From Nitrospirota bacterium (GTDB lineage Bacteria > JACPQY01), in contig JACPAV010000014.1 in assembly GCA_016180645.1 (NCBI GenBank), positions 1-64,000 of the forward strand: DNA of 64,000 nucleotides. Direction: 5' to 3'. A program made the position numbers and the translations under genes. The notes below the pieces were generated by a model. It saw nothing but the letters and a program-made list of their open reading frames with translations. It had not been told where the DNA came from and did not search any database. Shown piece by piece: positions 5,743 to 16,081 of the stretch. Positions within the stretch are counted from its first letter, which is position 1. Every line of letters begins with the position of its first letter.

Positions 5743-8700
5743 ATGCTGACAAAGAAACGAACCATTCTGCTCGGTACAGGCGCGATCCTGCTCCTGATCG
5801 TCGCTTCGGCGATTAACGGCTACCGGCATACGGTGGATGAAACCGCTGTCGATTTCAACCGATTCCAACTGGCCTTGGTGCGCACGGTGGCCCTGTCCGT
5901 TCATGCGCGTCTTGAAGTCATGGTGTCGGACCTCAAGCAGCTTAACAATCGCCCGCCGATCCAGTACCTCGATCAACCCTTCATGTCGGACAGGCTCCTC
6001 AAGTTTGTGCGTGAATCTCCCCGGAGCTTGGTCAAGGAGGCGTTCCGGGTCGACGCCTCGGGCCGTGAGGTGGCGAAGGTGCGGGGAGACGGCGAGGGAC
6101 CGGCGCATCGCCGCCTCTGGTCCGAAAAGGAGATGTTCGACTGGGCACGCCAACTCTCCCACCGTGGACATGCGCGGTTTGGCGACGTGCGGAGTATTCC
6201 GGGTGGAGGGCAGGAAGTCCTCCTGATCATGCCGACCTACGAGGAAACAACCGGCACCTCCCATCGCAAAGCAACGAACCGGTTTGCGGGAGTGACGGGA
6301 CTGGTCATCGACGTGGACCGAATGCTCCAGCTCTATGTCTCCACAACCGAGAAGGCGGCGCCGGCCAGTTTCATCTGCGTGGTGGACGGCGCTCATCGGT
6401 TCCTCCTGCACACGCGTGTTCCGTCGATGGTGGGGAAGGGGGTTCTTGAGGGGGTCGATCCTGAAAGCCGCGAAGGCCGGTTTCTGACCCGCGCCACGGA
6501 GGAGCCGGAAGGAACGGCCGAGGGATTCTCCCCAGACCGCACGGGACGGGGAAAACCGAGCGAAGAAGTGGTGGCGTGGTCGTCCGCCGAGGTCGAGAAC
6601 CTGAACTGGCGGATCAAGCTTCACACGGCTCACTCCACGGTGGTGGCCAAGGCCCGCCATGCCTTTGCCATGCAGCTCTGGACGGTGGTCTTCCTGATCC
6701 TGACCGTGGGAGGGGGTGCCTGGCTGATGCTCCGGAGCGAACGGCTTGAGATCGCCGCCCGGGATCGCGACCTCGCCCAGCGGCGCGAGTCCGAACTTCG
6801 CTTCCTCGTCGATCGTATCCCGGCCATTCTCTGGTCGGTGGATACCGACCTCAAGATCACTTCCATCCTCGGGGCGGGACTGGCGCCCCTCGGGGTCAAG
6901 CCGAACGAGACGGTGGGGATGAGCCTGTATGACTACATGCAGACGCGCGACCCCGCGAATCCCGCGTTGTCTGCGGCGGCCCGCGCGCTGAAGGGTGAGA
7001 AAGTATCCTACGAAATGGAATGGCAGGGCCATCCCTTCCAATCGTTTGTGGAGCCTCTGCACGATTGGACCGGAAAAATCGTCGGTTGCCTCGGTCTGAG
7101 CCTGGATTTTTCCGAAAGAAAGAAAATCGAGGAGACGCTTCGTCGCAGCGAGGAGCGGTTTCGGATCATCGTGGAGAACGCGCTGGACCCGGTCATGATC
7201 GTGAATCGCGACGGCACCATCCGCTATGCCAGCCGAATGGTGGAAGAGGTTCTCGGCTATTCCCTGGACGAATACCTCGGCCAGTCGGCCTTCGAGTTCA
7301 TGCACCCGGATGACCTCGGCGCCTCGGTCAGTGAGTTCACCCATTCCGTTGAGCATCCCGAAGAGACGAGGCACTTCACCAATCGCATCCGCCGGAAAGA
7401 TGGATCGTGGAGAACGGTGGAGGCCACCGGCAAGAACCTGCTCGGCGACCCGGCCATCGCGGGCATCGTGGTCAATTTCCGGGACGTGACGGATCAACGC
7501 AAGGCCGAAGAGACGGCCCAGGCCGCGCAGAAGCAACTCCTCAGCATCCTGGATACCTTCGACGCGATCATCTGGTCGCAATCGCCATGGGACCGGAAAT
7601 TCTTGTACGTGAGCCCGGCAGCCGAGCGGATTCTCGGGCACCCCATCGCACCCATCCTCGAGAACACCCGGTCCTATTTAGACGTGGTCCTTCCGGAAGA
7701 CCGGGATCGCGTGGATTTCGGAACGGAGATCATGGAGAAGGGCAAGTCCGACACGGAGTACCGGATCCGGAGGCCGGACGGTGAAATCCGCTGGCTTCGG
7801 TCCCGGGGTTGGGTGGTCAAGGACGAGAAGGGGTCCGTGGTGCGTCTGGACGGCATCACCTCGGACATCACTCAGCGGAAGCGGGCGGAGGAAGCCCTCC
7901 AGCGGGAAAAGACCTACTTGCAGGGAATACTGGACAACTCGATGGACCTGATCTTCACCGTGAGGCGAGACGGGACCTTTGGCTACTTCAACCCCCGGCT
8001 CGAAGATGTGACAGGGTATCGGCAGCAAGACCTCACAGGCCGATCGTTCATGGAGTTCATACCGGAGCATCGCAAGGCCTTCATGCTTGAGCGGTGGGAG
8101 GAGATCAATCGCGGCATTTCCGGCCGGTACGAGACGGAGATCATTAGGGCAGACCGAACGCTGATGCAGTGCAGGATTTCTCACTCGGTCTTGCCCGGCT
8201 TCGACGAGTTTCTCGTTGCGTTGCAGGACGTCACGGAGCAGAAAATGGCTGTCGAAGCCCGGAAGGAAAGCGTGGCGTTGTTCGGATCGCTGGTCGAAAA
8301 CATGCAGGCGGGGGTGCTCGTGGAATCCGAACAACGAAAAATCTTCGTGGTGAACCAGGCTTTCTGCAACATGTTCTCGGTTCCCGTTTCGCCCGACCGA
8401 CTGATCGGTGCGGATTGTAAGGAGGCGGCGGTGCGCGACAAGGATCAGTTCGCGGAGGGCGAGACGCTTGTGCAGCGGATCGACGAGATCGTGGAGCGGC
8501 GGGAGGGAGTCATCGGCGAGGAAGTGCGCATGGCGGATGGACGCGTCTTCGAGCGCGACTACATTCCGATCGTCACCGATCATCAAAAGTTCATCGCTCA
8601 TCTGTGGCAGTACCGGGATGTCACCGAACGGAAGCGCGCCGAGGCGGAGCGCATCCGGGTGAGCAAGATGGAATCGATCGGGCTCCTGTCCGGCGGGATC

Positions 8701-9789
8701 GCGCACGATTTCAACAATATTCTGACCGGCATCCTCGCGAACGTCTCCGTGGCGAAGAAAGAGGGGAAGGCGGACACCGAACTCTTCGCCGCCATGGCCG
8801 ACGCGGAGAAGGCCGCTCTGCGCGCCCGGCAACTTACGCAGCAGCTCCTCACACTCTCGCTGGGCGGGGCACCGGTCAAGAAGACGGTGGATCTCGCGCC
8901 TCTCGTTCGCGATGCCGCGGATCTGGCGGTGAAAGGAACCCGGGTGAAATGTGAGTTCGCGTTGCCGGAGGATCTATGGCCCGTGGAGGCGGATACGGTC
9001 CAGCTCAGTCAGGCCGTGGCAAACCTTGTGATCAACGCATGGCAGGCCATGCCTCAGGGCGGCGTGGCCGAAATCAAGGCGGAGAACGTGTATGTCGGTC
9101 CCGGGCACGTGCTGCCGCTCAAGAGTGGTCAGTATGTGGTGGTGACGATTGGAGACCACGGCCCGGGCATCCCGCCCCAAAACCTTCAGAAGATATTCGA
9201 GCCCTACTACAGCACCAAGCCGAGGGGGAGCGGTCTCGGACTGACGGTGGCTCATTCCATCGTGGCCCGGCACCTTGGTTATCTCGCCGTGGACTCGAAG
9301 GTGGGCGTCGGGACGACCGTTGCCGTCTACCTCCCGGCCTCCGAAGGGCGCGTGATCCCCGCACTGGAAGAAAAGATGGAAGTGGCGATGGGCGAAGGAC
9401 GGGTGCTCGTGGTGGATGACGATGAACACGTGCTGATCGCGGCCGAGCGGCTGTTGAAGAAGCTCGGGTACACGGTGGAAGTGGTGCAAGATGCGGAATC
9501 CGGCATCGATGTGTATCGCCGGGCCATGGAGGCCGGGCTGCGGTTCGACCTGGTGATGATGGATCTTACGATTCCCGGCGGCATGGGGGGGAAGGAGGCC
9601 GTGGCCGAGCTGCTCAAGATCGATCCCGAAGCAAGGGTGGTTTGCGCAAGCGGTTACTCCAGCGACCCCGTGATGTCGGACTTTCGCCGGTACGGTTTCC
9701 TGGGCTGCCTGCCGAAGCCGTTCCGAATCCAGGAGTTGAGCCGCGTTCTCGGCGAGGTCCTTGCGCAGCGCTTGCGCCCCTCATCTTGA
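5743..9789 (+). CDS. Hybrid sensor histidine kinase: extracytoplasmic Cache-like domain, 5 PAS domains, HisKA, HATPase, receiver
   Basis: Two TM segments, five PAS/PAC repeats, GGIAHDFNN, NLVINA, DHGPGI, GSGLGL, VLVVDD..MDLTIPGG..KPF. Confidence 0.95.
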   Translation: MLTKKRTILLGTGAILLLIVASAINGYRHTVDETAVDFNRFQLALVRTVALSVHARLEVMVSDLKQLNNRPPIQYLDQPFMSDRLLKFVRESPRSLVKEAFRVDASGREVAKVRGDGEGPAHRRLWSEKEMFDWARQLSHRGHARFGDVRSIPGGGQEVLLIMPTYEETTGTSHRKATNRFAGVTGLVIDVDRMLQLYVSTTEKAAPASFICVVDGAHRFLLHTRVPSMVGKGVLEGVDPESREGRFLTRATEEPEGTAEGFSPDRTGRGKPSEEVVAWSSAEVENLNWRIKLHTAHSTVVAKARHAFAMQLWTVVFLILTVGGGAWLMLRSERLEIAARDRDLAQRRESELRFLVDRIPAILWSVDTDLKITSILGAGLAPLGVKPNETVGMSLYDYMQTRDPANPALSAAARALKGEKVSYEMEWQGHPFQSFVEPLHDWTGKIVGCLGLSLDFSERKKIEETLRRSEERFRIIVENALDPVMIVNRDGTIRYASRMVEEVLGYSLDEYLGQSAFEFMHPDDLGASVSEFTHSVEHPEETRHFTNRIRRKDGSWRTVEATGKNLLGDPAIAGIVVNFRDVTDQRKAEETAQAAQKQLLSILDTFDAIIWSQSPWDRKFLYVSPAAERILGHPIAPILENTRSYLDVVLPEDRDRVDFGTEIMEKGKSDTEYRIRRPDGEIRWLRSRGWVVKDEKGSVVRLDGITSDITQRKRAEEALQREKTYLQGILDNSMDLIFTVRRDGTFGYFNPRLEDVTGYRQQDLTGRSFMEFIPEHRKAFMLERWEEINRGISGRYETEIIRADRTLMQCRISHSVLPGFDEFLVALQDVTEQKMAVEARKESVALFGSLVENMQAGVLVESEQRKIFVVNQAFCNMFSVPVSPDRLIGADCKEAAVRDKDQFAEGETLVQRIDEIVERREGVIGEEVRMADGRVFERDYIPIVTDHQKFIAHLWQYRDVTERKRAEAERIRVSKMESIGLLSGGIAHDFNNILTGILANVSVAKKEGKADTELFAAMADAEKAALRARQLTQQLLTLSLGGAPVKKTVDLAPLVRDAADLAVKGTRVKCEFALPEDLWPVEADTVQLSQAVANLVINAWQAMPQGGVAEIKAENVYVGPGHVLPLKSGQYVVVTIGDHGPGIPPQNLQKIFEPYYSTKPRGSGLGLTVAHSIVARHLGYLAVDSKVGVGTTVAVYLPASEGRVIPALEEKMEVAMGEGRVLVVDDDEHVLIAAERLLKKLGYTVEVVQDAESGIDVYRRAMEAGLRFDLVMMDLTIPGGMGGKEAVAELLKIDPEARVVCASGYSSDPVMSDFRRYGFLGCLPKPFRIQELSRVLGEVLAQRLRPSS

Positions 9790-9820
9790 TCCGACGTCTC
9801 CGGTCCTGTAGCATCCGCCG

Positions 9821-10144
9821 ATGCTTCCCCTTGGCTCGCTGAAAGATCAAGTCGCCGTCATCACCGGCGGCGGCACCGGTCTCGGGAAGGCCATGGCCGA
9901 TGAATTCGGGCGGCTGGGAGCCAGGCTGGTTCTCGCGAGTCGAAAAAAAGAGAACCTCGATTCCGCTGCGGAGGATCTTCGCAAGAGGAAGATCGAGGTG
10001 CTGACCGTTCAAATGGACGTGCGGAAGCCGGAGGACTTCGTCAACGGCGACGTGTTCACGATGGACGGGGGGGAGTGGCTCAACCGGGGAATCTTCCGCG
10101 CTCTGGATCGCCAGGAAGCTCCCTCGATTCCTCCAAGGAAATAG
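9821..10144 (+). pseudogene. SDR (2,4-dienoyl-CoA reductase-like) with a large in-frame internal deletion
   Basis: ITGGGTGLG...MDVRKPE is joined directly to the C-terminal FVNG..TMDGG.WL; no NNAG or YxxxK region; only 107 aa. Confidence 0.75.
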
Positions 10145-10208
10145 AGGCCCGCACGCCCCTCACGGGGCGGGAGGATCTCCGGCTTTTTCTCTGAACCCGG
10201 CGGGTGCC

Positions 10209-10445
10209 CTATCGGGCCGGCGGCTTGAAAAGGTCGGAAGGGGAGACACGAAGGACCTGGCCCAGCGTGAAAATCGTGTCGAAGGACGGCATCCGCTGTC
10301 CCCTTTCGAGCAGTCCCAGGTAATTGGCGGAAAGCTTGAGCGCCTTCGCCAATTGCTCCTGCGTCATCCCCACCTTTGCACGGAATCGGCGCGTGTTGGC
10401 GCCCACCCATGTCGCGAGTTCCTGAGTATCTTTTGCCTGTCTCAT
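10209..10445 (-). CDS. XRE/Cro-family HTH transcriptional regulator
   Basis: GMTQEQLA...SANYLGLLERGQRMPS; GGAG RBS upstream of ATG 10445. Confidence 0.9.
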   Translation of the reverse strand: MRQAKDTQELATWVGANTRRFRAKVGMTQEQLAKALKLSANYLGLLERGQRMPSFDTIFTLGQVLRVSPSDLFKPPAR

Positions 10446-10574
10446 GATCGCTTTGCTCCCTCCTCGGCAACGATCCGGCCTTTCGGCCGGTCGTGATACC
10501 GGCCGACCTCTGAACTTCTTCGGCGGACCCAACGCCCGCAATTCAGGCCAGAGAGCGGCCGGGAACGAATGCCC

Positions 10575-10760
10575 CTACAGGTCGCTCGGTTTCAGCGTCT
10601 TGCGACCGTTCGCTTTGCAGCGCGAGATCGCCTGACCGATCAGGTCGCGGACGACCTTGTCCAACGCGCCGTAGAATTCCGACGAAACGTTGTGACCCTT
10701 GGCGGCGCCCTTCGTTCGGCTCTTCGAGATGATCAGTTCTTTTGATTTTCCTTTTGCCAT
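10575..10760 (-). CDS. Prokaryotic histone-fold protein (61 aa)
   Basis: LII.S+.K...NVSSEFYGALDKVVRDLIGQAISRCKANGRKTLKPSDL with the RKTxxxxD signature; basic; AAGGAG RBS. Confidence 0.85.
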   Translation of the reverse strand: MAKGKSKELIISKSRTKGAAKGHNVSSEFYGALDKVVRDLIGQAISRCKANGRKTLKPSDL

Positions 10761-10871
10761 GTCGAATCTCCTTTCGGTTTCAATTTCAATTTGTGAGCGT
10801 AAAGCCATGTATCACAGGCATGAGGCCCATTGCAAGTCATTAATCACCGGGGTGACAAGCTGAAAGGGCCG

Positions 10872-12131
10872 TCAGAACCCGATCCCGAGGGAGAATCGGA
10901 TGCCGGAGCCCTCACGGGAACCGGCAAGCGTCTCCTCCGCGGCCTGCCAAGACACCTCCGTGACCCATTTCAAGCGGCGGAAGAGTCCGAACTGCGCGCC
11001 GCCCTTGAGTTCGAAACCGAAACCGAATTTGGAATCTCCCCCCTGGTTCGTGGGATTGAAAACGGCGCTGTTGCTGAGGGACTGATACTGGAACGCCGGG
11101 CCGACCCCCACGAAAGGTCGGGCGAATTCCGAACCGCCCAGTGGGAAAAGGACGAGGATGCCGAAGGGGATCCGGGTCAAATTGGAAGTATCGGTCCGGC
11201 CGTCGGATCGGGAAAGGCTCGCCGAGCCGGAGAAATAACCCATCGATGCCTGAACGATCCATGGCTCACGCCATACGAAGCCGACGTCGATGGCGGGGCC
11301 GAGAAGCTGGCCGAAAACCTGCCCGGTCTTGGCCGAGGGGCTGAGGATGGAAAGGAATCCTGCGATGTGAATGCGGCGGCTCGGCGGCAGGGGCACGGGA
11401 CGGTCCGCCTGTTTCGGCCCTGTGGCGTTCGCAAGCTCCGCCACCGGCTCTTCATTTCCGGGGTCGATCGGCTGGCCCTGAAGTTTGATCCAGCCGGGGT
11501 TGCCGAGGCTCCATTCCACGGTGCGTTCCAAAGGCGAGCCGACGAGGGCGACCAGCTGGCCCAGTTCGGGTCTCAGCCGGGATTCGAGGTGCTCCACGCG
11601 ATTCAGGAGATCGTTCCACGCCAGCACGTCCGGAGCGGGGAGTGCGGTTCTCGGCCGGCGACCTTCCTCTCCGCTGATGGAAGCGGGCCTGCCTTGCCCC
11701 AAGTGGTCCAACCGGGCCACGAGCGCTCCCAGGGAAGTGCCCCGGCGTACCACGCGCTGCGCAACGATCCGGGGCTGCGCTGGTTTTGCCCGGTAGTCGC
11801 GGGCCAGGTAGATGACGGCCTCGAAGGGGGAATCCCAATCGAACGCCTCGATCGGGATGCTGCCGAGCCATCCACTGAGTCGCCGCGCCAGTCTGCCCTT
11901 CGTTTCCCTGCTGTAGACGGCGGTCCGGTCGGTCTTGACCCGGAGTCGCACCGCCTTGAAGTCAATCCCGCGACTGCGAAGAATGCGCTGCACTTCGAAC
12001 GAAACGGGCTTGGGCACATCCGCCGAGACGAAGAGGGCGACCGTGGACCGCGACTTGGGGGGTGCGGCCATCGCAGGATGAGTGATTCCGAGGACCAAAA
12101 GGGCCGGCAGGAGAAATCTCAGACGCATCAC
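10872..12131 (-). CDS. Exported protein with C-terminal outer-membrane beta-barrel
   Basis: Signal peptide; alternating beta-strand pattern (RPFVGVG, FGFGFELKGG); ends SLGIGF. Confidence 0.65.
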   Translation of the reverse strand: MMRLRFLLPALLVLGITHPAMAAPPKSRSTVALFVSADVPKPVSFEVQRILRSRGIDFKAVRLRVKTDRTAVYSRETKGRLARRLSGWLGSIPIEAFDWDSPFEAVIYLARDYRAKPAQPRIVAQRVVRRGTSLGALVARLDHLGQGRPASISGEEGRRPRTALPAPDVLAWNDLLNRVEHLESRLRPELGQLVALVGSPLERTVEWSLGNPGWIKLQGQPIDPGNEEPVAELANATGPKQADRPVPLPPSRRIHIAGFLSILSPSAKTGQVFGQLLGPAIDVGFVWREPWIVQASMGYFSGSASLSRSDGRTDTSNLTRIPFGILVLFPLGGSEFARPFVGVGPAFQYQSLSNSAVFNPTNQGGDSKFGFGFELKGGAQFGLFRRLKWVTEVSWQAAEETLAGSREGSGIRFSLGIGF

Positions 12132-12143
12132 GCCGCCATTATA

Positions 12144-12725
12144 TCACCGGGATGATTTCGACAGGATGGCGGCGGAGAATTCCAGAGCGGAGGTCAAATG
12201 CAGCGCTTCTTCGAGTGTAGCCCCGATGGCATATGAGCCGTGGCCCCGCATCACGGCGATCCGATGCTCCCGAAGCACTCCGGGCAAGATGCGCGGCATC
12301 TTCCGGTAGCTCTCGATGGTGTTGGCGCCGACGACGGGAACGCGCTGAAGGTGATGAATGCCTTCAACATCCACCGGAACGACGTCCCTCCGGTGTAAGG
12401 AGAGAGCCACAGCCTGAACGGGATGCGCGTGCACGATGGCCCTTGCGCCCGTCAGAGCATAGATGGCCCGGTGGATCTCGACATCCACGGAGGGGGTTCT
12501 TGATCTCCCTCTCCCCTTGCCCGCCGCGGCGGGCTGGCGGGAGAGGGTCAGGGTGAGGGGTACCTTCACAATGTCCTTCGCCCTCAGAACCCCCAGCATT
12601 GCATCATGCCTCGTGATGAAAATGGCCTGCCCGATCCTCACACTCATGTTCCCACTGTGCGACCCGACAAGGCCCAGATCGAAGAGGATTCGGCCGACCG
12701 AACTGAAAGTGTGGGCAAGCGTCAC
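12144..12725 (-). CDS. Class II aldolase/adducin family protein (FucA-like)
   Basis: SGNMSVR, H..IY, AIVHAHP, MRGHG; contains an in-frame palindromic insertion. Confidence 0.88.
   Translation of the reverse strand: MTLAHTFSSVGRILFDLGLVGSHSGNMSVRIGQAIFITRHDAMLGVLRAKDIVKVPLTLTLSRQPAAAGKGRGRSRTPSVDVEIHRAIYALTGARAIVHAHPVQAVALSLHRRDVVPVDVEGIHHLQRVPVVGANTIESYRKMPRILPGVLREHRIAVMRGHGSYAIGATLEEALHLTSALEFSAAILSKSSR
12505..12560. repeat. CCCTCTCCC/GGGAGAGGG-type palindromic element in frame inside the aldolase gene, with nested cccgccgcggcggg hairpin
   Basis: ctccctctccccttg-cccgccgcggcggg-ctggcgggagagggtcagggtgagggg. Confidence 0.7.
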
Positions 12726-15700
12726 GAATGCCGGATCTTCCGCTTCTTCTTGATAGCTCTACGTGCTGATGGCGAGGGTGGAAGCGAATCGGAAATGCTC
12801 CATAGAGCCTCGATTGCGGCTGCACCGTCCAGAGAACGCGGAGTTCGTTTCTTGAGCAGTCGGAGAAGCGGTTGGACGCCCTCTTCCTGTCCAAGTCTGC
12901 CCACCGCGATGGCAGCCGATCTTCTGACTTCCACGTTCTTGTCAAGCAAGGCGGCAAGGAGCGGTCGCAGGCCTTTTCGATCACCGATCTCGCCAAGGGC
13001 CATGGCAGCCGGGGCGCGCACCCTGGGATCCGATTCTTGTGTGAGCATCTTCAGGAGCCTTGGAACTGCGTCAAACATCCGGGCGGCTGATACGCCGAGG
13101 GTTCCTGCCCGTTTCACATCCGGGCTTCCATCCATCAACGCCTTCAGCAACGCATCTTTCGCCTGTGGAGAGCGCATGCCGGCCAGTGCAAGTATGGCGG
13201 GTGCGCGAATTTCCGGTCTTCGGTCCTGGGAGGCGTCGAGCAGTATTCTTTCCGCATCGGAACCTCCAATCCGTGCCAGAGCAAAGGCGACCTCCCGGCG
13301 GGTGTCACCGTCACTTTCACGCTTAAACCGCTCCTCAAGGGGACCCAACGCATCGGGATTTCCCAATTGAGCCAAGGCTTGGGCAGCGGCGCTTCTTACT
13401 TTCGGGTTGGAATCATCGGACAGGATGTTCAAGAGCGTCCGAATCGATTGGGCGCTCCTGAAAAGGCCCAATACCAGCGTCGAGGTGAATCGGACAACCG
13501 GGCTGTTGTCGTTGATGGCCTTGAAAACCTCTTCTTTCGCTCTGGCGCTCCGTGCCCACGTCAAACCGTTGATTGCAGAAGCGCGGACAGTGTCGTCGCG
13601 GCTCTGAAGCGCCTCGATCAGGATTTTCTCGGTTTCCGGAGTTTTCCTCCTGCCCAGTTCTGTTCCGGCCAACCACGAAAGGGGCGGATCACCGCCGTGG
13701 AGTTTTGTGATCAAAGCTTCAATGGGATCCTCGTCAGGCCACCACACTTGGCCTCGTCTCATTTTGACCAAGGCTCTTGAGATTTCACCGTGCAGGCCGG
13801 AGTGACGAACTTCCCTCAAAGCCCACTTCCAAACCTGAAAAGGGATTCTTGGGAAAGTCTTGACGAAGTTTGTTGCAATGGTCGCCCTTAGGTCTTGCGG
13901 CAATGCTTCCGTTACCTCCGCGCCTAGAAGAACGGCCAGGACATCCTGCTTGTGAAGAATCTTGGTGATCCAATTCCGCCTCCCGCCCTGACGAAGGTTC
14001 ATGAAATGTTCGACGAGATTCCTTGCATCTTCCTGACGATTCTGGACGTGGCCCATGTAGCCTGTCCCGAGGCGAATGACCTCCTGCCATCTTGGATCAT
14101 GGAGATGTTGAAGAACCTCGCTCTCAAAATTGCCTTCAGCGTGCAGGCCAACAGCCGCAAAGAACTCCTGAAACTCCAAGTGCATGAACCCCCACTGGCC
14201 GGGGCCTCTTTCAATGAGGATTTGGACCTCTTCCCCGGCCTTGTCCAGAAACACCGCGGCCACGCGACGGGCCTCGGCCTTGGACAGCTTTTCTCTCTCT
14301 CGAATCTTTTCCGCGAGGACGTCGATCACGAACTCTTTTGGGGCCGCTCCCGTCGGCCACTCTCGATGCAGGTTGAGTGCGAGATGTCCGAGGACGGGCA
14401 CGGCCTGTTCCGCATACGGGATGGGCCGACCCGATACATGGCCGGAAACGAGTCGTCGAGCGGTCTCCCACGTTTCGCAAAGGGCGCGGGAGAATATCTC
14501 GTACGCCAGAACCCTGTGGTGAGGGAGATCTCCTTCAGCTCGGTGGATGAGGGCAAGGGCCGAGAGAGCGAACGGGTTTCGAGCGACCTCCGACAGGCGC
14601 GGATTCTCCCGAAGCCTGGAGAGGAGCTTATCCGCATCACGGAGAGCCATCGGATCGTCACCGCCGATCTCCCATTTCCGGTAAGCCCGCGTGAATGCCC
14701 TAACGTAGGTCTCAACCTGGCGGTCGTCGAATGAATCCAGATAGATTTCGGCTTTGTCGTTCATTTCGAAACCGGAATAGCCGACTGTTCGCGAAGAAAT
14801 GATGAACCGATTTCTTGGATATGCGGTGATGAATGTTTCAAGCCAGGCGCGGGTCGCATGCCGGTTTTCGGTTTTTACCTCATCCAACCCATCGAGCAGG
14901 ACCAAACATTCTCCCTGTTCCAGGGAGCGGTGAAGGAAGGTCCGAAGTTCATCTTCCTGCCCAACATTCCGCTCGTGGAAATACCGCGCCATGGCATCTG
15001 GAACCGAGGGGCTTCCTGTCATGGAGTTCCTCATTTCGGCCAGATGGCCCACACTGACAGGCAAAGGCAGAAGTCTTTCACTGAAGCCCAATTGCCGATC
15101 AAGACCGATCCTTCCCTCGGACGAAACGACGGCCAGCCACCTGAGGACCGTCGTTTTCCCCGATCCAGGTTCCCCCAGCAGGACGATCCGTCGATTTACC
15201 CGAAGGGCTTCCGCCAGATCGCGTGTTAAGAGAGGCGACAGCACTTTACCCGCCTCGACGTCTGTCTTTGCGGCCTCACTGGAAGGTCGGTCGAAGGGGA
15301 TGATGCCGTCCGTAGTGCTTTCTTTCTCAGCTTGTTTGATGTGAGGTGAGACAAACACATCCAGGAGGCCCAAGACCGGGGGTTCCTTTCTGGTGAGGCG
15401 GAAACCGACGTAACGAAGATTTTTTATCTCCGGGCTGTTCGAGTAGTACCTGAATTTGTCCCAATACTTCAGATCCTTGTCGGGGAGAAACTTCTCCGGA
15501 TCGGCTCGCTCACGCGCCGCCGGGGGGAAAACGTATGCCACCACATGATCCTTCTCGGAAAGACCGAGACACGGGAAATGTTCAGGTCGTTCGCGCTCGG
15601 GCAGCATTAGATAGACATCCTCCGTAACCGCAACGGAGTTGGAAGGCGTGGCCTGCTCCAGATGCCCGCACAAGTCAATGGCCTGGTGAGACATCTTTCC

Positions 15701-16081
15701 CGTTTCAGGCTCCCATTCCACGGTTGCGGAACTCACGGCAATCCGAGCCTGCAACCCCAGTGAAACACACACCTCTTCCCAGAGATTCTTTGCAAGCTGA
15801 AAACCCCGAACGGGCGCCGGTGTTCCTTCATCATCGGTGAGGTAAATCATGACGCCGTCCCCCTGCCAGGTCAGCGGTTGGACGGCATGAAAACCACGCG
15901 CGGCCGCCTCTACGGCCGCCCAGTAGCGATTGTTGCGCTTGCGCCATTGCCCCTCGATCAGCTCCTTCTTCTCCTGTGTGGACCCCTCCCTGTCGATCTT
16001 CACAAACGCAAGGGAAATCCTTTCCCCTGGGATGATCTTGTCCCACCAAAGGTAGGGTGAGGAGGGGGAATCTGTAATCAA
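12722..16081 (-). CDS. NACHT (STAND) NTPase with N-terminal class III nucleotide cyclase-like domain and C-terminal HEAT repeats
   Basis: Cyclase-like IDREGST/QGDG/ARIAV/HLEQAT..VAVTEDVY; Walker A GEPGSGKTT; Walker B LLDGLDE; FMHLEFQEFFAA; many VR..AA.ALG HEAT repeats; TTG start overlaps the upstream TGA. Confidence 0.88.
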   Translation of the reverse strand: MITDSPSSPYLWWDKIIPGERISLAFVKIDREGSTQEKKELIEGQWRKRNNRYWAAVEAAARGFHAVQPLTWQGDGVMIYLTDDEGTPAPVRGFQLAKNLWEEVCVSLGLQARIAVSSATVEWEPETGKMSHQAIDLCGHLEQATPSNSVAVTEDVYLMLPERERPEHFPCLGLSEKDHVVAYVFPPAARERADPEKFLPDKDLKYWDKFRYYSNSPEIKNLRYVGFRLTRKEPPVLGLLDVFVSPHIKQAEKESTTDGIIPFDRPSSEAAKTDVEAGKVLSPLLTRDLAEALRVNRRIVLLGEPGSGKTTVLRWLAVVSSEGRIGLDRQLGFSERLLPLPVSVGHLAEMRNSMTGSPSVPDAMARYFHERNVGQEDELRTFLHRSLEQGECLVLLDGLDEVKTENRHATRAWLETFITAYPRNRFIISSRTVGYSGFEMNDKAEIYLDSFDDRQVETYVRAFTRAYRKWEIGGDDPMALRDADKLLSRLRENPRLSEVARNPFALSALALIHRAEGDLPHHRVLAYEIFSRALCETWETARRLVSGHVSGRPIPYAEQAVPVLGHLALNLHREWPTGAAPKEFVIDVLAEKIREREKLSKAEARRVAAVFLDKAGEEVQILIERGPGQWGFMHLEFQEFFAAVGLHAEGNFESEVLQHLHDPRWQEVIRLGTGYMGHVQNRQEDARNLVEHFMNLRQGGRRNWITKILHKQDVLAVLLGAEVTEALPQDLRATIATNFVKTFPRIPFQVWKWALREVRHSGLHGEISRALVKMRRGQVWWPDEDPIEALITKLHGGDPPLSWLAGTELGRRKTPETEKILIEALQSRDDTVRASAINGLTWARSARAKEEVFKAINDNSPVVRFTSTLVLGLFRSAQSIRTLLNILSDDSNPKVRSAAAQALAQLGNPDALGPLEERFKRESDGDTRREVAFALARIGGSDAERILLDASQDRRPEIRAPAILALAGMRSPQAKDALLKALMDGSPDVKRAGTLGVSAARMFDAVPRLLKMLTQESDPRVRAPAAMALGEIGDRKGLRPLLAALLDKNVEVRRSAAIAVGRLGQEEGVQPLLRLLKKRTPRSLDGAAAIEALWSISDSLPPSPSARRAIKKKRKIRHS

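Follow-up and report, generated by a model that had tools for sequence, protein, structure and literature searches.

Alpha3-truncated histones and their described relatives

Bacterial histones were overlooked until about 2023. Among the prokaryotic histones with a truncated alpha3 helix, the face-to-face (FtF) class is defined by a ring-shaped tetramer and the conserved residues R48, N52, R54, T56 and D61 (HMM numbering), together with an alpha3 cut to 3–4 residues and a shortened alpha2. In the same account, bacterial dimer histones are described as being without R48 and N52, and an RKT motif is linked to bacterial dimers and nucleosomal histones (Schwab et al., 2024, PMC11390915). The main text of that paper describes alpha3 histone genes as single-gene operons.

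Two FtF histones with solved structures serve as references here. HTkC (9F2C) is the FtF histone of Thermococcus kodakarensis (Schwab et al., 2024, PMC11390915); it is reported to wrap DNA round its toroid (bioRxiv 10.64898/2025.12.06.692711), and its R45A mutant is described as collapsing to a dimer. HLp (9QT0, also 9QT1/9QT2), the FtF histone of Leptospira perolatii, is reported to be stable as a tetramer, to bind DNA with no sequence specificity and to wrap ~60 bp of it (Hu et al., 2025, PMC12701072). In published structures of the class, the conserved FtF arginine contacts the C-terminal carboxylate of the opposing dimer. Two further groups are needed for comparison. HBb (Bd0055) of Bdellovibrio bacteriovorus (8CMP, 8FVX) has the alpha3-truncated fold and is strictly a dimer that bends DNA. 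The DUF1931 (PF09123) pseudodimers, such as Aq_328 of Aquifex aeolicus, follow a two-fold model of 138 positions, and the published cluster map sets them apart from the FtF histones.

Fold and family of the Nitrospirota histone

The gene studied here lies in a stretch of 64,000 nucleotides (the window) from a Nitrospirota genome of 4.7 Mb in 65 contigs, which is 97% complete. It occupies 10575..10760 on the minus strand, and its translation is exactly the 61-aa basic protein quoted in an earlier reading of the letters alone (the sequence-only reading), in which the strand was absent. The ATG start codon is at 10760–10758. It is preceded by the ribosome-binding site GAAAGGAGA (10767..10775, minus strand), whose Shine-Dalgarno core AAGGAG at 10773–10768 ends 7 nt before the ATG, so the strong site noted in that reading is indeed there. 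A longer protein of 77 aa could start from an ATG at 10808, but this is unlikely because the paralog described below and the closest homologs all begin at the MAK... position.

The protein has a mass of 6.56 kDa and a pI of 10.2, with 14 lysines and arginines against 5 acidic residues. A basic tail (residues 1–8) is followed by alpha1 (~13–19), alpha2 (27–50) and a one-turn alpha3 (58–60), and the last residue is L61; R47, N51, R53, K54, T55 and D60 are the key positions. The Lys-rich N-terminal extension that had been remarked upon is present. However, it is short, with 8 residues ahead of the core compared with a median of 13 in 58 full-length rows of our alignment, and residues 1–4 have a pLDDT below 50 in the AlphaFold2 (AF2) model.

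Domain searches with the single sequence gave only matches below the respective cut-offs. Pfam PF00808 was matched with an E-value of 0.0068 (17.1 bits, cut-off 21.4) and PF09123 with 0.19 (12.4 bits, cut-off 21.8), the latter over profile positions 23–53 only, and NCBIfam returned no match for the histone. A single-sequence phmmer search of the PDB placed HTkC first (9f2c, E 2.1e-5), followed by 9qt0, 8cmp/8fvx and HMfB. To sharpen the comparison, an alignment of 71 sequences was used, comprising the query, its paralog, 56 of the 120 listed database matches and 13 locus translations. With the profile of this alignment, HLp (2.3e-14, 56.6 bits) and HTkC (2.9e-14, 56.2 bits) scored best, and the dimeric HBb (2.9e-9, 40.3 bits) fell 16 bits under these FtF structures. 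The nucleosomal histones HMfA and HMfB gave E-values from 2.8e-3, the value for HMfA, to 0.047. All 184 of 184 candidate homologs reached an E-value of 1e-3 or better, which places the likeness above chance.

The AF2 monomer was predicted with a pLDDT of 89.7 and consists of helices at 13–19 and 27–50 (24 residues) and a turn at 58–60. Foldseek ranks 1–9 were all HTkC, HLp or HBb, that is prokaryotic alpha3 histones, with query-normalised TM-scores of 0.73–0.81. The best match was HTkC (TM 0.81/0.85, rmsd 1.3 Å, 38% identity), with HLp (TM 0.80/0.85, 28% identity) and HBb (TM 0.77) next to it. The Foldseek E-values, 1.4e-3 to 7e-3, are modest because the chain is only 61 residues long. The histone fold proposed in the sequence-only reading was thus recovered by both profile and structure searches.

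At seven positions, A44, R47, N51, R53, K54, T55 and D60, no substitution occurs in any of the 71 aligned sequences, and the lysine K17, which corresponds to the conserved alpha1 lysine, is kept in at least 90% of the rows. These positions and the model agree with the FtF features point by point. Alpha3 is cut to one turn and alpha2 is shortened in the AF2 model; the dimer–dimer residues R48 and N52 (HMM numbering) are present as R47 and N51; the RxTxxxxD motif is found as R53, T55 and D60; and the chain stops right past the clamp aspartate (D60-L61-stop), as in the displayed homolog rows, which end in DL or DI. The features of the other classes do not apply. The single-turn alpha3 and the score under the gathering threshold do not fit a PF00808-type nucleosomal histone, the 138-position two-fold PF09123 model of the DUF1931 pseudodimers is not matched above its gathering score, and a bacterial dimer histone would be without R48 and N52 and with nothing confident above the dimer. 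Judged by its sequence and its predicted structure, the protein is a face-to-face, alpha3-truncated bacterial histone. The earlier guess of a 'face-to-face-like' type was right, since the tetramer residues R47 and N51 are present and the four-copy model described below uses the FtF interface. As the FtF class is known and homologs are annotated, the gene is a further member of a recently characterised class.

Comparison with the reference proteins shows what is shared and what is not. HLp resembles the Nitrospirota histone in being bacterial, in its length of ~60–65 aa, in the short basic tail at its N-terminus and in the truncation of alpha2 and alpha3. It shares the R-x3-N-x-R tetramer residues as well as the R-D clamp and is the best profile match; it differs in sequence (28% identity) and has RTT where the Nitrospirota protein has RKT. 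The genomic settings differ as well, since Leptospira has a single histone in an SMC/MAP neighbourhood and no HU, whereas the Nitrospirota genome has two histone copies, four HU/IHF genes and an XRE-family gene as histone neighbour. HTkC is the best match both in the single-sequence PDB search and in structure, but it is archaeal and tailless, has E at the position of N51 and coexists with nucleosomal histones. HBb shares the GRKT....D motif in addition to the truncated fold, and is without the two tetramer residues. The DUF1931 pseudodimers share with close homologs of our protein the NCBI label and show the weak Pfam match, in contrast to which our protein is a single fold of 61 aa.

Relatives were found in large numbers. 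The profile matched 2156 clusters (50% identity) at E≤1e-3 and 408 at E≤1e-10. It matched 100 of the 151 genomes sampled in the phylum to which G041 (NCBI title Krumholzibacteriia) belongs, 46 of 201 in that of the Myxococcota MAG G044 and, with the source genome included, 4 of 41 genomes. The view that such histones are uncommon in bacteria does not hold for phyla of this kind, in which they are common. Nor are they easily missed by annotation, as had been suggested, since homologs are named 'DUF1931 domain-containing protein' at NCBI (in entries from Planctomycetes, Planctomycetota and Latescibacterota) and 'histone H3/H4' at JGI. We also note that the phylum with the Krumholzibacteriia MAG of locus L004 is not one of those that Schwab et al. 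(2024, PMC11390915) name in the main text as predominant for FtF histones. Genomes with two copies of comparable strength are rare in the G041 phylum: 11 of the 151 had a second match, both reached ~1e-27 in two of these (G094 and G141), and the second was far weaker in the others. The four nearest named genomes carry one histone copy each.

Several observations on the relatives stand apart from the locus itself. In the phylum of G044, a DUF6178 (PF19676) gene adjoins the FtF histone in 19 of 30 loci (L205–L234) and is a conserved neighbour; it is convergent with the histone at L010, L016 and L019. In two MAGs, a Sir2-family deacetylase gene lies directly upstream of a tailed FtF histone and co-oriented with it (L016:2019–2786 and L019:2009–2776). 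A recurrent Sir2-histone pairing was considered and rejected, since no more than two cases came up in 30 further loci, and one of these was again in the genome of L016. At Planctomycetota-labelled loci the histone has housekeeping genes as neighbours, namely alanine racemase at L012, L013 and L015 and a TsaD-family (TsaB-like) gene at L005, L006, L013, L014, L015 and L018, and IMP dehydrogenase follows the histone at L009 (Krumholzibacteriia MAG) and L007 (unclassified bacterium MAG). Many of the top-scoring representatives (P0121–P0125 and similar) are ~114–130 aa long with two matched stretches and look like FtF-like tandem doublets, which would make them possible pseudodimers distinct from DUF1931. 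The only relative on a viral contig, at L168:1501–1668, is 38% identical and sits on a 102-kb giant-virus MAG contig. With this single viral relative, a phage-borne origin of the histone was dropped.

Oligomeric state and proposed role

The residues that hold the FtF tetramer together are present with the published spacing. R47, N51, R53, T55 and D60 are spaced like R41, N45, R47, T49 and D54 of D4GZE0 and like R49, N53, R55 and D62 of HLp. R47 aligns with R45 of HTkC, the residue whose mutation leaves a dimer, and the chain end one residue past D60 fits the published contact between arginine and carboxylate. At the positions of R47 and N51, HBb bears S and D in the profile alignment. Among six HLp interface residues, two differ, HLp S52 being A50 and HLp T61 being S59 in the Nitrospirota histone.

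A four-copy model was predicted with confidence. The ipSAE was 0.88 in each of three runs, compared with 0.00 for the best of three controls, on a score calibrated on two copies rather than four; among proteins of solved structure, 20 of 30 one-chain pairs and 1 of 23 single chains pass its mark. The runs had 98% or more of their contacts in common, and the partner pLDDT did not fall below 88. The contacts reported are those of a single copy. In this copy, residues 8–61 form the interface with the dimer mate, and the interface with the other dimer involves residues 44–48, 50–51 and 54–61 against 46–47, 49–51 and 57–60, which is the FtF interface. On the choice between dimer and tetramer raised in the sequence-only reading, the prediction thus gives a confident four-copy model with a dimer–dimer interface at 44–51 and 54–61. 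Since the HTkC and HLp tetramers are already solved, the four-copy result may reflect memory of these structures and speaks for likeness, not for assembly.

Could the histone instead act as a DNA-bending dimer like HBb, with no DNA-wrapping tetramer? HBb is a significant relative by both profile and Foldseek, and the RKT motif, which Schwab et al. (2024) tie to bacterial dimers and nucleosomal histones, is kept, with K54 invariant. The possible recall of solved structures also leaves room for a dimer. However, R47 and N51 are invariant in the 71 rows while bacterial dimers have neither, the lead of the FtF structures over HBb amounts to the 16 bits given above, and the confident dimer–dimer contact falls exactly where the FtF interface is expected, at 44–51 and 54–61. 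We therefore regard a purely dimeric, DNA-bending histone as highly improbable.

The reading that we prefer, and consider very likely as a whole, is that the protein is an FtF nucleoid-associated histone which forms a ring tetramer, wraps DNA without specificity and is one chromatin protein among several. By analogy with HLp and HTkC, two head-to-tail histone-fold dimers would close into a ring-shaped homotetramer, with contacts made by the C-terminal part of alpha2, by loop L2 and by the single turn of alpha3. R47 would pair with the free C-terminal carboxylate after D60-L61, N51 would pair with R53, and loop L2 would be held by a clamp of R53 and D60. The tetramer would bind DNA without sequence preference through a basic band of K13, R15, K17, K54 and T55 and through the Lys-rich tail, and would wrap roughly 50–60 bp, leading to compaction of the chromosome. 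The tetrameric state in solution, the wrapping of DNA and the abundance of the protein are inferred from these comparisons.

The genome also contains four matches to the HU/IHF family. The histone is thus not the sole nucleoid protein, and a dominant architectural role is not implied. As a proxy for expression, we calculated the codon adaptation index (CAI) against 21 ribosomal and elongation-factor genes (median 0.723), with 2958 crude ORFs as background (median 0.66). The histone reaches 0.722 (83rd percentile) and its paralog 0.705 (75th), whereas the neighbouring XRE genes have values of 0.645 (window copy, 43rd percentile) and 0.572 (paralog-side copy, 18th). With ~60 codons per histone gene and a weakly biased genome, codon usage is a noisy measure and only suggestive of histone expression. 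A look for sequencing runs covering positions 8000–13000 gave no RNA data set; the four entries were DNA runs from one groundwater study, three of which may be the source.

The XRE neighbour and the second locus

Downstream of the histone, 129 nt past its end and in the same orientation, as had been noticed from the letters, is a gene for an XRE-family helix-turn-helix (HTH) protein (10209..10445, minus strand, stop codon included). It encodes 78 aa with an HTH_3 domain (PF01381, E 1.7e-13, 50.8 bits against a cut-off of 23, residues 19–72) and no other domain. Its remaining likeness is generic, namely to HTH proteins, the 'control protein' of restriction-modification (R-M) systems, capH and phage repressors, with all NCBIfam matches below cut-off. 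PADLOC 'Control_protein' models matched the window XRE with an E-value of 1.5e-9 and the paralog-side XRE with 1.7e-10. With R-M controller (C) proteins it shares the HTH-only build and a length of ~75–80 aa, but there are no restriction-modification genes near the XRE and the likeness is generic to HTH_3.

The 129-nt spacer between the two genes (10446..10574, minus strand) is GC-rich and strongly structured. Its minimum free energy is −64.4 kcal/mol (z −3.34), and none of 200 shuffled sequences was as stable. It includes the ribosome-binding site of the XRE gene, GGAGGGAG. No T-tract terminator was found in the spacer and no Rfam family matched positions 9500–11500 at E≤1. The structure may act as a leaky terminator, or it may be a hairpin that stabilises the 3′ end. 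Terminator-like hairpins with a T-rich tail were detected by consensus match at 10143..10166 (minus strand), ~45 nt past the XRE stop; the scan returned 2 sites against a shuffle mean of 0.8, and this element is a possible end of a histone-XRE transcript. A sigma-70 promoter scan of 10100–10950 gave no sites. As a candidate operator, though a weak one, we note the palindrome TCACC-CC-GGTGA (10844..10855, minus strand), ~85–95 nt upstream of the histone ATG. The 9-mer ACCCCGGTG from this palindrome is found again, reverse-complemented, upstream of the paralog and is the only 9-mer that the two upstream regions share. Since ~0.13 shared 9-mers are expected by chance, this sharing is not significant and serves as a lead only. 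Inverted repeats with a seed of 6 and a length of at least 10 were absent from 10440–10880, and a tRNA scan of the window was negative.

The surroundings contain some further genes of note. On the plus strand, a 107-aa ORF (9821–10144) matches only positions 1–64 of the 195-position short-chain dehydrogenase (SDR) model and ends C-terminal-like, so that it resembles the remnant of an SDR that was truncated or has lost an internal part. Two large signalling genes lie on either side of the locus, one for a 1348-aa hybrid histidine kinase with multiple PAS domains and a receiver domain (5743–9789, plus strand) and one for a 1119-aa NACHT NTPase with many HEAT repeats (12722–16081, minus strand).

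A second histone of 59 aa is encoded on another contig of the genome (C20:5941–6120) and is 71% identical to the first over 58 matched residues (69% globally). It, too, is directly followed by an XRE gene on the same strand, and the two XRE proteins are 37–42% identical depending on the tool. Similarity between the loci is confined to these two genes, with 72% nucleotide identity over 159 nt for the histones and similarity at the protein level only for the XREs. The two XREs are mutual best matches (E 2.5e-12) among 14 XRE-like matches in the genome. The spacer at the paralog measures ~71 nt and contains a hairpin of ~14 pairs (arms of 12 nt; z −1.94, 8 of 200 shuffles as stable), and a stable GC-rich hairpin is thus found just past the histone stop at both loci. 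The ORFs scanned round both loci include no integrase, transposase or phage genes, and the neighbours are ordinary chromosomal genes. A tree of the 71 rows over 67 columns did not fix the place of the two paralogs (support 88/17 and 98/79).

Outside this genome the arrangement did not recur. An XRE relative (phmmer E<1) was found beside the histone at none of 77 loci of other species, and at the 23 bacterial loci in this set no HTH family was detected in 81 flanking ORFs (Pfam, E≤1e-5). Nor did any of 30 loci sampled in the G041 phylum, or of 30 in the G044 phylum, carry an XRE gene beside the histone. The pair had been put forward as a feature whose conservation could be checked; with none in 137 loci from other genomes, it is no general trait of the family and was seen in this genome only, where both copies have it. 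Conversely, no histone was detected at 80 metagenome loci with XRE relatives (80 of 202 relatives, at most 48% identical to the XRE), the best tblastn match having an E-value of 0.088 over 17 residues. The same-family genome G001 (84% complete), the only other genome of the phylum in the comparison, has neither a histone nor a close XRE. Among the papers found on FtF or bacterial histones and transcriptional regulators, none describes an XRE-coupled histone, and the terms 'XRE' and 'helix-turn-helix' were not found in the text of Schwab et al. (2024, PMC11390915).

How should the pair be understood? The XRE may be a mere neighbour, both pairs stemming from one old segmental duplication in which adjacency has no function. 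In favour of this explanation are the absence of the pairing from every other genome examined (0 of 77, 30 and 30 loci; 0 of the 81 flanking ORFs at 23 of the 77), the stable hairpins that separate the genes in gaps of 129 and ~71 nt, an XRE codon usage unlike that of the histones, the want of a convincing shared operator and the sheer number of XRE genes, 14 matches in the genome. Harder to reconcile with it is that adjacency and orientation outlived divergence to 72% nucleotide identity for the histone and ~40% amino acid identity for the XRE while the flanking DNA lost similarity, and that the XREs are still each other's best match. There are also weakly supported signs (the 88/17 and 98/79 above) that the nearest metagenomic relative may be a different one for each paralog, in which case the duplication would be old. 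We judge the mere-neighbour explanation to fall slightly short of an even chance. By contrast, there is very little probability that the pair belongs to a mobile element as an accessory cassette, or is a module for defence or of a toxin-antitoxin-like kind, with the XRE serving as antidote or repressor of harmful histone over-dosage. The XRE does generically resemble antitoxin, controller and phage-repressor HTH proteins, the distribution is patchy with no histone found in the sister genome G001, and expression of HLp is reported to disturb the E. coli nucleoid (Hu et al., 2025, PMC12701072). However, PADLOC and PHROGs gave no match for either histone copy, both loci sit among ordinary chromosomal genes with none for integrase, transposase or phage functions in the ORFs scanned, their GC contents of 0.565 and 0.60 are near the 0.608 of the genome, and viral contigs yielded only the one giant-virus MAG relative. 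Gene order and the wide spacer are also unlike typical type II toxin-antitoxin pairs.

We give about even odds to a role of the XRE as a low-level controller dedicated to the histone module, like the R-M controller proteins. An old duplication that kept the pair together speaks for such a link; against it are the absence of the pairing elsewhere, the description of alpha3 histone genes as single-gene operons and a search that gave no significant shared operator. The fuller picture is of a two-gene chromatin module, in which a highly expressed, DNA-wrapping FtF histone is followed by a leaky hairpin and a low-level HTH controller that sets histone dosage or guides the histone to particular sites, and which was duplicated with both copies kept. 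We regard this picture as doubtful, at roughly one chance in four. The two histone paralogs of such a duplicated module may form mixed tetramers.

As a finding, a bacterial FtF histone is sound but ordinary for the field as of 2024–2025, and the extra interest, which is modest, comes from the duplicated histone-XRE module and the thinly sampled phylum. The FtF class, with its solved structures and a DNA-wrapping mechanism, allows the gene to be named confidently where annotation alone gives a sub-threshold domain match. The class is thereby extended to a thinly sampled bacterial phylum, represented by two species genomes in the comparison set, and in this genome two FtF paralogs occur naturally together with HU. 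Should the histone-XRE arrangement with its two copies prove functional, it would be a simple system in which to study dose control of a genome-compacting protein. As a two-gene module, it would be the first regulator-coupled histone operon among the alpha3 histones, which are otherwise described as single-gene units.
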